In this document: positions 5,637-61,026 of the stretch, one piece after another
How positions within the stretch are numbered: position 1 is the first letter of the stretch
Layout of the letters: every line of letters starts with the position of its first letter
Virus record (IMG/VR): IMGVR_UViG_3300017747_002922
Span: 1-64,000 of that record
Direction: 5' to 3' (one strand)
Length of the DNA stretch: 64,000 nt
Origin: a virus
Lineage: Duplodnaviria > Caudoviricetes
The notes under the pieces: generated by a model
What the model was told of the DNA's origin: nothing
What the model saw: only the letters and a program-made list of their open reading frames with translations
Databases searched by the model: none
Position numbers and translations under genes: made by a program

Positions 5637-5666
5637 TCCCTACCACGCCCTGTTAGCCCCCGTCAA
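5637..5666 (-). promoter_or_regulatory. Sigma70-like promoter TTGACG-N18-TAGGGA
   Basis: Same -35 as five other promoters in the window; points into the leftward operon. Confidence 0.5.
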
Positions 5667-57236: not shown

Positions 57237-57461
57237 ATGTGGACCATCTTCGCGACCGGCTACCCGGACTGCCCTCTGATCGTGGACTACCCCGCGGCCG
57301 ACCTGTCGTCAGCGGTGTCGGCGATCGTCGGCGAATGGGTGCCGGTCGCGTCGGATGGTCCCCACATCCTCCCGCTCACCGTCTACGGGCCGGGCGGGCA
57401 AACCATCGTCACCGCCCGCGTCGTCGTGATTGACGACGCAGTATCGGAGGTGTCGCTTTGA
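57237..57461 (+). CDS. Small hypothetical protein
   Basis: 74-aa ORF. Confidence 0.55.
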   Translation: MWTIFATGYPDCPLIVDYPAADLSSAVSAIVGEWVPVASDGPHILPLTVYGPGGQTIVTARVVVIDDAVSEVSL

Positions 57462-58072
57462 TTGGCCGACCCAAAAAGAACACCCCCACCGGCCGCATCC
57501 TCGTCCTGATCTGCGCGACCCCGGGCGAGGAGACGATCGAATCGTTGGCCGCCCACGTTTATCCAACCCCCCGCCGCGTCAAGGCGTTCACCAACCACGC
57601 CGAGGTCCGCGAGTGGGCGAAGTCGCAAGCAGAGGCGAGACAGCAGGCCCGCGCCCGAACCGCGCGCGTGGTCCAGCACCTCGCCGAAGCCGGCTACCTC
57701 CAGTCCAACGGCCGCCCCGTGATCGCGGACTGGTTCGCGGCCAAGGTCGCCGCCGTCGGTCTGCCCGAAGCGTTGCGGCGTGCGGGCCCGCGGTGGAACC
57801 GGTCGCTGGCGAACACCGCGCCCACCGGCCCGCTCGCGTTCAGCGGCTACCACGAGGGGCCGGGCGTGCTCCATGCCGCGATGGTCAACCGGGTTGCGGC
57901 TTCGGTGGGGAATCCGCGCTGCACCGTCGCGGACATCATCGGGAGCAAGCCGACGACGCGCGAACAACAGGTGTGGGGCAACCTGATCGAGTGGGGAATA
58001 ATCGTACCCCCACGCGCCCGCTTCCCGACGGCGAAGGCGTTGGACCTGGTCGCGTCGTGGGGAGCGCCGTGA
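57458..58072 (+). CDS. Hypothetical protein, possibly DNA-binding
   Basis: TTGA overlap, GGAGG RBS; GRPKK start. Confidence 0.65.
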   Translation: MIGRPKKNTPTGRILVLICATPGEETIESLAAHVYPTPRRVKAFTNHAEVREWAKSQAEARQQARARTARVVQHLAEAGYLQSNGRPVIADWFAAKVAAVGLPEALRRAGPRWNRSLANTAPTGPLAFSGYHEGPGVLHAAMVNRVAASVGNPRCTVADIIGSKPTTREQQVWGNLIEWGIIVPPRARFPTAKALDLVASWGAP

Positions 58073-58413
58073 CCCTCTTCAACCAGCCCGCGCCGCCCAT
58101 GCCCCGCGTCGGGGTGTGGGCGGACATCGGGCGATGGATCACCGGAGACGCCGAATGGCCCGCCGACATCCCCCGCGCCTGTACCGCGTCCTCGTCATCG
58201 CCCGTCGCCGTCGTCGCGAGCGAATCGCCGACCTCAAACTGCAAGCCGAGTTCGGGTGGTGGGACGACTACCGACGCGCCCACAACCTGCCCGCCGACGC
58301 CGACCCCTACGCGGGCGGCTACTTCTGACCCCAACGTCGTCCGCGTCGCGCTCGATCACTGGGCGCGCGTGTGGGCGACCTACCCGAACCACCGCCCACG
58401 AGGTGACGAATGA
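58069..58413 (+). CDS. Hypothetical ORF that fully overlaps a nested gene
   Basis: GTGA and ATGA overlaps at its ends; middle third low-complexity. Confidence 0.35.
   Translation: MTLFNQPAPPMPRVGVWADIGRWITGDAEWPADIPRACTASSSSPVAVVASESPTSNCKPSSGGGTTTDAPTTCPPTPTPTRAATSDPNVVRVALDHWARVWATYPNHRPRGDE
58155..58328 (+). CDS. 57-aa basic protein (MARRHPPRLYRVLVIARRRRRERIADLKLQAEFGWW...)
   Basis: GGAG RBS; protein-like composition. Confidence 0.55.
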   Translation: MARRHPPRLYRVLVIARRRRRERIADLKLQAEFGWWDDYRRAHNLPADADPYAGGYF

Positions 58414-58643
58414 GACTCTCCTACCGACTCCGATGGCCCCCCTACCTGTTCTGGTGGGCGTGGGTCGTCACCCCATGGCGCCGACTCGTTGTGTGGACCG
58501 ATCGCCTTCGCGGCCTGTCGTGGTCGCGCTGTCCGGGTTGCGGTGCCTTCGAGGAGGAGATGCAGGACCCGTGCGACGCCTGCCCTTCCCGGTGCCATCA
58601 CCCGATCACCGTCAACCGCTACGGGAGTGTGACCACACCATGA
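58410..58643 (+). CDS. Small Trp-rich protein with a C-terminal zinc ribbon (CPGC, CDAC)
   Basis: ATGA overlap. Confidence 0.6.
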   Translation: MRLSYRLRWPPYLFWWAWVVTPWRRLVVWTDRLRGLSWSRCPGCGAFEEEMQDPCDACPSRCHHPITVNRYGSVTTP

Positions 58644-59002
58644 ACCCCGCCGACCTGACCGCTATCCGCACCTCGATCCTGACGGCCGACACGTCCACGA
58701 TGTCCGGTGCCGAGCGTGACTGGTACCGTGCCTGCGTCGCCCTGCTCGCCGAGGTCGACCGCCTCACGCCCGCGCCGAAGCCCGAACTGCCGCCGATCGA
58801 CGAGTTGCCCATGGTGGTCGGCAGGACGTGGGGCCGCTTCTACGGCACGGCCCTGTTTCACTCGCTCGCCAAGTACAACGACGAGCACTTCCCAGCGTGT
58901 GGTCGGGTCATGCCCCGGCGCTACATGACGCACGCCGTCACTACGCAGTCTCGCCCCTGCGCCGCCTGCCTCGCGTTGGCGAAATCTTCGGAGCAACCAT
59001 GA
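58640..59002 (+). CDS. Hypothetical protein (ACG...CAAC)
   Basis: ATGA overlap. Confidence 0.6.
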   Translation: MNPADLTAIRTSILTADTSTMSGAERDWYRACVALLAEVDRLTPAPKPELPPIDELPMVVGRTWGRFYGTALFHSLAKYNDEHFPACGRVMPRRYMTHAVTTQSRPCAACLALAKSSEQP

Positions 59003-59358
59003 ACCCCACCTGCGCTCACACCGTCATCGTCCCGTCGCCGTCCAACGGCCACCACTGTCGCGACTGCGGCACCCCGTTCGTCCTCGCCCGGTTCGCACCC
59101 CTGACCCCGTGGAGCACCTTGGCCGCCGTGGTTGAGGAGCGCAACCGCTACTATGCCGAGGTCGCCGCGCTTCGGTCGCAGGTCGAGGAGTTGATGCGGT
59201 GCGGGGTGTCGATCCACAAAGCGGCATCGGCGGCCGTGGACTTCGAGCGCGAACGGGTCAACGGGATCCTCACGCGCATGGCCTCGGACGCGCACGACCG
59301 GGGCGACTCGGCGGCGGCGGACGCGTTGGCGGCGGCGGCGATTGCGGTGCGGCCGTGA
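58999..59358 (+). CDS. Zinc-ribbon/coiled-coil hypothetical protein
   Basis: CAH...CRDCG; ATGA overlap. Confidence 0.6.
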   Translation: MNPTCAHTVIVPSPSNGHHCRDCGTPFVLARFAPLTPWSTLAAVVEERNRYYAEVAALRSQVEELMRCGVSIHKAASAAVDFERERVNGILTRMASDAHDRGDSAAADALAAAAIAVRP

Positions 59359-59383
59359 CCCCGCGCCACTTGCGGCGGGGGCG

Positions 59384-59412
59384 TTGACGGGGGCGGCGTG
59401 ATCTGGTAAGAA
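59384..59412 (+). promoter_or_regulatory. Promoter TTGACG-N17-TAAGAA for the dpdA-like/queC operon
   Basis: Canonical spacing; predicted +1 near 59419. Confidence 0.55.
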
Positions 59413-59430
59413 GACTTCGATTCGCTGATG

Positions 59431-59532
59431 TTCGATGGCAGTCGAACGGAAGCTCCGATTCTTAGCGGCGATGGCCGCGCCCTGCGCCACCCGGTTCCGC
59501 TGCCACGGCGCCGGGTGGCCTTCGGAGTTTCG
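59431..59532 (+). ncRNA. Candidate cis-regulatory structured leader (three-way junction masking the SD)
   Basis: P1 59449-58/59522-31, P2 59465-69/59474-78, P3 59486-94/59511-19, plus 5' hairpin 59431-35/59442-46. Confidence 0.5.
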
Positions 59533-60153
59533 GTGATCTCGTACGCCTCTCGCACCGGCACCAAACGCAACCTCGCGGCCCTCCGTGGCGCGGGGTGGCG
59601 GATCCTTGTGTCGGCGAAGGGCGTCCACCGCACCGAGGGATTCCCCTACGCGATCGACAACGGGGCGTGGACGGCGCATCAGCAGGGCATCCCGTTCGAC
59701 GATGCGGCGTTCATCAAGTGCGTGAACTACCTCGGCGCCGACGCTGACTTCGTGGTGGCCCCTGATGTCGTCATGGGCGGCATGGGGTCGCTCGCGTTGT
59801 CGCTGACGTGGCTCCCGTGGTTGCGCGATCGGTGCCGCCGGATCCTTGTCCCCGTTCAGGACGGGATGACCGACGAGGACATCGCGCCGCTCCTGTCTCC
59901 CGAGCTCGGGATCTTCGTGGGCGGATCGACCGAGTGGAAGGAGGCGACCACCCTCCGATGGTCGCGCCTTGCTCACGCTCACGGGGCGTGGTGCCACGTC
60001 GGGCGCGTCAACACGGTTCGTCGGATCCGCATCTGTCAGTTCGCCGCCGTCGATTCGATCGATGGTTCGTCCGCCTCTCGCTACGCCGTGACCCTGCCGA
60101 AACTTGACGGGGCCGTTCGTCAACCTTCTCTCTTCGGGTGCCTGAATGCCTGA
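59533..60153 (+). CDS. Minimal TGT/DpdA-like deazaguanine transglycosylase (206 aa)
   Basis: TGT-type motifs IDNGAW, APDVV, VPVQDG, IFVGG, HVGRVN, DSIDGS; adjacent to queC; GGAG 5 nt before the GTG. Confidence 0.7.
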   Translation: MISYASRTGTKRNLAALRGAGWRILVSAKGVHRTEGFPYAIDNGAWTAHQQGIPFDDAAFIKCVNYLGADADFVVAPDVVMGGMGSLALSLTWLPWLRDRCRRILVPVQDGMTDEDIAPLLSPELGIFVGGSTEWKEATTLRWSRLAHAHGAWCHVGRVNTVRRIRICQFAAVDSIDGSSASRYAVTLPKLDGAVRQPSLFGCLNA

Positions 60154-60742
60154 CCTTGTCGTCCTTCTCTCCGGTGGCCTTGACTCGACGGTGTGCGCCG
60201 AGATTGCCCGTCGATCGGGACACCTTCACTCCGTCGTCTCGTTCGCGTACGGACAAGCGAATACCGTGCAGGAGATGGGTGCGGCCGAACGGTGGGCGGC
60301 GCGTCACAGGGTTCCCCGCAAGGTGTTCGCGGTCGACGTGCCCGGCGTGTCCGCCCTCGACATCGGGGCGGGCGCCCACGGCCCCCGCGTGGTCGCCGGC
60401 CGCAATCTGCTTCTCCTGTCGCACGCCACCGCCTACGCGTTGTCGGTCGGTGCCTGTCGCGTGTGGATCGGTTGCAACGCGGACGACGCCGAGGACTACC
60501 CCGACTGTCGGCGCGAGTTCATCGAGGCCGCCGGGATGATGACGTGGCTCGCCTACGGGTCGCGGGTGTGGGCCCCCCTGATCGACATGAACAAGCGGCA
60601 AGTCGTGGCGAAGGCGCGCGAACTCGGGGTCGACATCGCTGATACGTGGTCCTGCTACCAGCCGTCGATCGCTCGCCCGCTGGAACCGTGCGGGACCTGC
60701 AACGCGTGCCGACTTCGGGCGTCCGCGATGGGTGACGAATGA
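60146..60742 (+). CDS. queC: 7-cyano-7-deazaguanine synthase QueC
   Basis: LSGGLDST, SFAYGQ, GRNLLLL, YPDCR, TWSCY...CGTCNAC. Confidence 0.9.
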   Translation: MPDLVVLLSGGLDSTVCAEIARRSGHLHSVVSFAYGQANTVQEMGAAERWAARHRVPRKVFAVDVPGVSALDIGAGAHGPRVVAGRNLLLLSHATAYALSVGACRVWIGCNADDAEDYPDCRREFIEAAGMMTWLAYGSRVWAPLIDMNKRQVVAKARELGVDIADTWSCYQPSIARPLEPCGTCNACRLRASAMGDE

Positions 60743-61026
60743 CCGCCCCCGCCAACTTCGGCCTCTACATCAAATCCCTCCGCACCGCCGCCAACCTGTC
60801 GCAGCACGAGCTTGCCCGCGACCTCGGCGTGTCTCACGTCACCCTCGGCGAAGTGGAGCGCGGCAAGCGGACCACGCTCGCGCCGCGCCACTGGCCCGAA
60901 CTCGTGCGCCGGATCGGTGCTGACTTCGGGGTGCTTCAGGCCCTCGCCACGACGGAGCGCGTAGCCACCCTACAGCGCCGGATCGACGCGCTACAGGTTG
61001 GCAATCTGCCTACTGACGGGGTATGA
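60739..61026 (+). CDS. XRE-family HTH protein (paralog 1)
   Basis: FGLYIKSLRTAANLSQHELARDLGVSHVTLGEVERG. Confidence 0.85.
   Translation: MTAPANFGLYIKSLRTAANLSQHELARDLGVSHVTLGEVERGKRTTLAPRHWPELVRRIGADFGVLQALATTERVATLQRRIDALQVGNLPTDGV
60766..60805 (+). repeat. 40-bp direct repeat, copy 1 (39/40 identical to 61769-61808)
   Basis: TACATCAAATCCCT(C/T)CGCACCGCCGCCAACCTGTCGCAGC. Confidence 0.9.

Follow-up and report, generated by a model that had tools for sequence, protein, structure and literature searches.

Leaders that sequester the ribosome-binding site (RBS) are well described in phages: long-range pairings occlude ribosome sites in MS2 and Qbeta RNA, and the lambda N leader is a further case. 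The leader described here, which precedes a dpdA-like gene and queC in a phage genome, shares with these systems, as they are generally known, a Shine-Dalgarno (SD) sequence held in a long-range helix that closes after local hairpins, stability without a ligand, and a dedicated candidate promoter. It differs in that it belongs to a single lineage and has no homologs, and in that we identified no activating event, be it upstream translation, RNase III or a protein. Its position also recalls the moron and cassette junctions of phages that carry their own promoter: the dpdA-queC cassette has sharp homology boundaries, its neighbors differ from relative to relative, and in this phage promoter-like and hairpin elements sit at the joint. 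Here, however, neither the candidate promoter nor the leader is part of the conserved cassette, and both occur in this phage alone.

The fold invites comparison with riboswitches as well. The purine riboswitch (RF00167) and its 2'-dG variants are likewise three-way junctions with a closing P1 and a short, pyrimidine-containing J3/1, but in this family each of two 7-bp stems ends in a 7-nt kissing loop, whereas our leader has a P2 of 5 bp with a 4-nt loop and a P3 of 10+3 bp. The junction sequences are unrelated, P1 of the leader is 10 bp long and ligand-independent, and the covariance model gave no match at E <= 10. The preQ1-I, preQ1-II and preQ1-III classes (RF00522, RF01054, RF02680) resemble the leader in preceding 7-deazaguanine genes and in having the SD in structure. 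They differ in that their covariance models do not match and in that the leader, about three times larger than preQ1-I, has neither a small pseudoknot hairpin with an A-rich tail nor an A-run.

The reading that we favor, at a probability of about one half, is that a lineage-specific 5' leader at a mosaic joint limits or delays translation of DpdA and probably stabilizes the mRNA.

The dpdA-queC module and its start codon

The stretch of DNA that we analyzed (the window, 64 kb) is the first part of a 77,917-bp phage record. This record is a complete genome with direct terminal repeats and 67.8% G+C (IMG/VR), and the phage is distant from every isolated phage, its best terminase match having ~26% identity. 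The features of the leader region are collected in Table 1.

Table 1. Features in and around the leader, in window coordinates
Feature	Position	Strand	Description
Setting of the leader		+	replication/DNA-modification block: sliding clamp, helicase, N6/N4 methyltransferase, small ORFs, TGT-like gene, QueC, Xre-type HTH gene
Upstream gene, 119 aa	58999..59358	+	function unassigned; start is ATG 58999, not GTG 58828
GC-rich hairpin straight after upstream stop codon	59359..59382	+	from the fold of 59345-59575; no U tract
Sigma-70-like promoter candidate	59384..59412	+	TTGACG 59384-89, 17-nt spacer, TAAGAA 59407-12, TG two bases upstream (extended -10)
P0 hairpin	59430..59447	+	7 bp, GGCA loop; near predicted 5' end
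Three-way junction core, 83 nt	59449..59531	+	-50.9 kcal/mol, z -4.68
P1	59449-58 / 59522-31	+	GAAGCTCCGA / TCGGAGTTTC; 10 bp, one G-U; holds GGAG 59524-27
P2	59465-78	+	5 bp, 4-nt loop GAUG
P3	59485-59520	+	arms 59486-94/59511-19; 10 bp, internal loop, inner 3-bp stem, 6-nt loop CUGCCA
J3/1			CU
DpdA-like (TGT-fold) gene, 206 aa	59533..60153	+	GTG start; PHROG 15826
QueC	60146..60742	+	8-nt overlap with dpdA stop; Pfam PF06508, E 3.8e-44
Xre-type HTH gene	60739-61026		just downstream of queC

Sequence-only searches of Pfam and the PDB returned no match for the 206-aa protein encoded directly after the leader. Its AlphaFold model (pLDDT 89.4) was informative: the best 50 PDB folds were all tRNA-guanine transglycosylases (TGTs; E ~6e-6, TM 0.6), and the protein is 35% identical to phage proteins annotated as DpdA-like. 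The TGT-type fold and the adjacency to QueC place it in the DpdA/TGT superfamily, with DpdA activity itself putative. The initial annotation had proposed a TGT/DpdA-like gene followed by queC, and both assignments held, the first through the modeled fold and the second through the Pfam match. The complete 77,917-bp genome contains no FolE, QueD (PTPS) or radical-SAM QueE, so that 7-deazaguanine chemistry, if there is any, has to draw on CDG or related precursors from the host. Given the fold, the neighboring QueC and these pathway gaps, "deazaguanine module" is a fair description of the locus.

The family to which the protein belongs, PHROG 15826, comprises proteins of ~205 aa and is widespread (2,848 database proteins at E <= 1e-20) without having a Pfam model; it is listed as "unknown function" in PHROGs, yet is confidently modeled as a minimal TGT barrel. 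One homolog from an Erythrobacter phage is annotated as a "DarB-like antirestriction protein", which looks like a mis-annotation. A clade of 22 homolog loci (L097-L109, L024-L030 and others), drawn from prophages of Paraburkholderia and from soil metagenomes, shares conserved sequence in the 200 nt that precede the dpdA-like start, and the proteins are 280-298 aa long in the NCBI annotation. These proteins may genuinely be extended at the N terminus, or an element upstream of the gene may be conserved.

Whether the leader is a leader at all depends on where dpdA begins. No stop codon separates the in-frame ATG 59428 from 59533, and this ATG lies ~9 nt from the predicted 5' end; translation from this codon would give DpdA 35 extra N-terminal residues and turn the "leader" into coding sequence. 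However, position 1 of the PHROG 15826 profile aligns at residue 36 of the ATG-59428 frame, which is GTG 59533. This position also holds a start codon in over 100 homologs, gathered from viral, metagenome and genome collections, whose products begin M-I-x-Y-A-S-R-T-G. The 35 additional codons have a GC3 of 0.66, as against 0.83 in dpdA and queC, no SD lies ahead of ATG 59428, and nucleotide homology to relatives ends at 59533 without taking in the extension. Initiation at ATG 59428 is thus exceedingly improbable. Translation starts at GTG 59533, as the initial annotation had assumed, and 59359-59532 (174 nt) is therefore non-coding. This spacer is the biggest gap in a tightly packed + strand run of genes from 53.0 to 64.9 kb.

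The start of the upstream gene was also revised. GC3 is 0.91 from 58999 onward but 0.56 for 58828-58998, homologs of the encoded protein are 115-119 aa long, and an ATGA overlap couples the gene to the one before it (58640-59002, 120 aa). The mechanically delimited ORF, 58828-59358, over-extends the gene at its 5' side. With those limits it had no relatives in IMG/VR; the corrected gene has relatives, and the DNA downstream of them is either that of the same phage (L131) or unrelated (L132-L134). The protein contains a CxxC-type motif (HHCRDCG), and its relatives are found in metagenomes only. The GC-rich hairpin that follows its stop codon was not called as a terminator by our scan; it may belong to the upstream unit, as a hairpin that marks its 3' end or adds stability.

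A stable fold over the dpdA ribosome-binding site

ViennaRNA returned an identical P1/P2/P3 minimum free energy fold in four flank contexts, with P0 giving way in some sequence contexts to an extension of P1 across the start codon. None of 200 dinucleotide shuffles was as stable as the 83-nt core, and the 100-nt segment containing the leader ranks ~17th among 3891 overlapping segments of the genome for stability, despite having lower G+C than most of the others. The SD lies inside the 3' arm of P1, 5 nt ahead of GTG 59533. Among 5000 dinucleotide shuffles, 0.6% produced an SD-covering helix of 10 bp or more with no more than one G-U pair, a figure that rises to 7% if G-U pairs are unrestricted. 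The leader fold is real and non-random, and it buries the SD.

The initial annotation had described these helices, the junction, the GGAG and the GTG, and we recovered each of them at the positions that it gave, including the burial of the SD in a long-range helix. It had also proposed a kissing contact between UGG at the tip of P2 and CCA in the P3 loop. The 3-nt complementarity is present, but it is no better than chance and one of its bases is in the P2 stem; the P2 loop has only 4 nt, which makes a loop-loop contact of the purine type impossible.

To gauge occlusion, we calculated the cost of opening the ribosome footprint (-18 to +13). For dpdA this cost is 27.0 kcal/mol, which ranks first among 82 phage genes (mean 14.9, sd 5.1), a rank that is approximate because several other high opening energies stem from crude start-codon calls. 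Compared with 90 dpdA homologs and corrected for G+C, the value is +2.6 sd. The relatives L118, L121 and L123 have opening costs of 11.6-14.8 kcal/mol, and among the compared relatives only L120, whose dpdA is translationally coupled, matches the high cost in the window. Strong occlusion thus characterizes this phage and not dpdA genes generally. Judged on mean pairing probability alone, the SD region comes only 11th of 82 (genome mean 0.60), high-GC genes being generally well paired.

P1 forms without a ligand, with pair probabilities of 0.87-1.0 and a helix probability of 0.99 at 37 C. With mean pair probabilities of 0.992 (20 C) and 0.978 (45 C), P1 pairing is unchanged over this range, and on these grounds we rejected an RNA thermometer. 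The P1 duplex alone amounts to -14.4 kcal/mol and freeing the SD arm costs 9.5 kcal/mol, leaving little thermodynamic room for a ligand that would stabilize P1.

A fold this stable raises the question of how DpdA gets made at all, and leaves room for an activator such as RNase III, a protein or a ligand. RNase III processing is known from the lambda N leader and T7 early mRNAs. By analogy, the leader could be off by default and be opened by RNase III cleavage of a ~20-bp stack of P1 and P3, or a protein of the phage or the host could bind it as an operator, at the level of RNA or DNA. The 27 kcal/mol needed to open the RBS does seem to call for some route to expression, and P1 (10 bp) and P3 (10+3 bp), if stacked, could span roughly two turns of a helix. 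P3 is also a perfect 9-bp inverted repeat that could be recognized in the DNA itself, and the Xre-type HTH gene lies just downstream. Yet the arms of P3 and P1 are not repeated elsewhere in the genome as an operator set would be, the half-sites are spaced 25 bp center to center, which is no helical repeat, and no conservation speaks for such a role. To our knowledge, RNase III sites cannot be predicted from sequence. Operation by such a factor is, on balance, rather improbable.

Absence of the leader from related cassettes

The closest relatives of the DpdA-like protein came from the protein database, at 96% (P0002), 90% (P0003) and 69-76% identity, and are closer than those from contig collections. 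Their upstream regions differ from that of the window and from one another. At 96% amino acid identity (L118 and L119), a DUF5131 gene is followed by an unrelated spacer of ~69 nt. At 90% (L120), the GTG of dpdA overlaps the preceding stop codon (GTGA), and the preceding gene is a homolog of window 57458-58072; compared with this relative, the window has ~1.46 kb extra (58073-59532) between the two genes. At 71% (L121 and L122), dpdA has a 4-nt overlap with a DUF3310 gene, and at 72% (L123) at least 166 nt without a called gene lie upstream of dpdA and are non-homologous to the window leader. This last region (L123:1-166) has GC-rich hairpins of its own, also non-homologous, including CCGGCCCTCC/GGAGGAGGCCGG, and may be a structured dpdA leader in its own right, independent of the one in the window.

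Alignment and blastn both place the start of nucleotide similarity exactly at 59533 for L118/L119, L120 and L123, and at 59530 for L121. At the other side, homology of the cassette (window 59533-60711) ends in or at the end of queC, at 60409 for L118 and 60711 for L120. These boundaries and the differing neighbors indicate that dpdA-queC is a cassette that has landed in different contexts, and that the leader belongs to one joint.

The only other copy of the leader that we found is in L131, a JGI sample of the same phage with 99.2% identity over 58510-59601. All nine differences fall within the upstream gene and the leader is identical, so this copy carries no covariation information. We derived a covariance model (R1) from the sequence and fold of the leader and searched it against 423 kb from 98 homolog loci; it found nothing below E 0.5, only chance matches at E >= 0.59, none of them upstream of dpdA. 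Rfam gave no match at the gathering score across the whole window or at E <= 10 in 58900-60100 and 58000-59600; this negative, which extends to the purine and preQ1 models, had been anticipated in the initial annotation. A blastn search of the leader against 50,697 phage records produced one chance match of 28 nt, and when the 200-nt regions ahead of the dpdA homologs were compared all against all by blastn, the window had no neighbor. Pattern scans of IMG/VR gave seven matches for the P1 arms, all unrelated inside, and none for P3 plus the SD. ARAGORN reported no tRNA or tmRNA-like element. The leader, which is constitutively formed, is an orphan that has no counterpart in the closest cassettes and falls into no known family.

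These results bear most directly on the suggestion that the leader is a ligand-sensing switch. On this reading, the three-way junction would serve as an aptamer that binds a 7-deazapurine (preQ0, CDG) or a guanine compound, and binding would control access to the SD. The stable junction with the SD in P1 is compatible with it, as is the position next to a TGT-fold/QueC pair in a phage that has no FolE, QueD or QueE and hence depends on host precursors. However, cassettes at 96%, 90%, 72% and 71% DpdA identity lack the leader, the Rfam and R1 searches were negative, and the IMG/VR scans gave chance matches only. With P1 99% formed in the absence of ligand, an OFF switch that stabilizes P1 would have nothing to add and an ON switch would have to overcome 9.5 kcal/mol. 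The initial annotation had itself named a lack of conserved structure in homologous leaders as counting against its reading, and no such conservation was observed. We consider an orphan riboswitch very improbable. A variant in which a singleton riboswitch or RNA sensor would act kinetically during transcription, tying DpdA-QueC translation to the host pool of CDG/preQ0 or guanine, is an equally long shot.

Other candidates were rejected on simpler grounds. No hairpin of the leader has the UGU loop expected of a TGT-substrate mimic. The arms are single-copy in the genome, which argues against a MITE- or REP-like element. An intrinsic terminator or attenuator was dismissed after a scan found none in 59359-59532; the tail of P3, CUUCGGAGUUUCGG, has no U tract.

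A broader possibility is that the structure has no translational meaning, with the hairpins serving as 3'-end, terminator, insulator or stability elements of the upstream unit, or being neutral GC-rich palindromes at a recombination joint, and with the pairing of the SD incidental. The related phage L132-L134 offers a parallel. There, the order of the genes for proteins of 198 aa, 56 aa and 116 aa is kept, the last of them being homologous to the 119-aa upstream protein; these genes are followed by an unrelated gap, also long at 232 nt and with a GC-rich hairpin after the 116-aa gene, and then by a different gene. Hairpins without U tracts are common in high-GC genomes. In addition, ~16 other 100-nt segments of the genome are equally stable, and with unrestricted G-U pairs the chance of an SD-covering helix reaches 7%. 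Against these points, P3 has no U tract and was not called as a terminator, and its place downstream of the promoter-like site means that it would terminate the transcripts of that very promoter. The chance of a helix like P1 falls to 0.6% when at most one G-U pair is allowed, and no other RBS of the phage costs as much to open. We therefore regard a structure without a role in translation as unlikely, if worth keeping in view.

A candidate promoter and a model for the joint

The initial annotation had named a TTGACG-N17-TAAGAA promoter ahead of the leader. The sequence is present where it was described, but a strict consensus promoter scan did not call it, and its -10 hexamer, TAAGAA, is without the conserved final T. 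No second match of this type occurs on the + strand of the genome. A near-twin exists on the other strand at 5666(-) (window 5637-5666), where TTGACGGGGGC is followed by ~10 variable nt, TGGTAGGGA, and then GGAG and ATG. At both sites the extended -35 is the same 11-nt sequence (TTGACGGGGGC) and the extended -10 has the form TGGTArGrA; the spacer is 18 nt in the twin and 17 nt at the leader. The twin sits in a divergent intergenic region, ~20 nt ahead of its GGAG-ATG. This shared architecture suggests that both sites are probably promoters, and they may represent a class of promoters in the phage or sites for a shared regulator.

We propose the following model for the favored reading, in which a lineage-specific leader damps translation of DpdA. 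A mobile dpdA-queC cassette would have been joined to a different upstream neighbor, making 59359-59532 a lineage-specific boundary between transcription units. Transcription from the sigma-70-like promoter in this spacer would yield a leader with a predicted length of ~113 nt. This leader is expected to fold stably and constitutively into a hairpin and a three-way junction, with P1 holding the SD, and simple RBS occlusion would then keep initiation at dpdA low or delayed without any need for a ligand. The 5' hairpins probably also stabilize the mRNA. In this way, a promoter and a folded 5' UTR would take the place of the translational coupling or short spacers seen in relatives. The activity of the promoter, the 5' end of the transcript and the effect on translation are the parts of this model that we infer.

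The analysis corrects the start codon of dpdA to GTG 59533 and, on the favored reading, removes a false riboswitch lead. Should an orphan riboswitch, improbable as it is, prove to be the explanation, the leader would be of wider importance, as a new class of ligand-sensing RNA linked to phage DNA hypermodification. If instead the leader acts as we favor, the mechanism would be ordinary RBS occlusion, and the locus would provide a clean case of a dpdA-queC cassette being re-wired in a new context: translationally coupled in relatives, and under its own promoter and a damping leader in the phage studied here.
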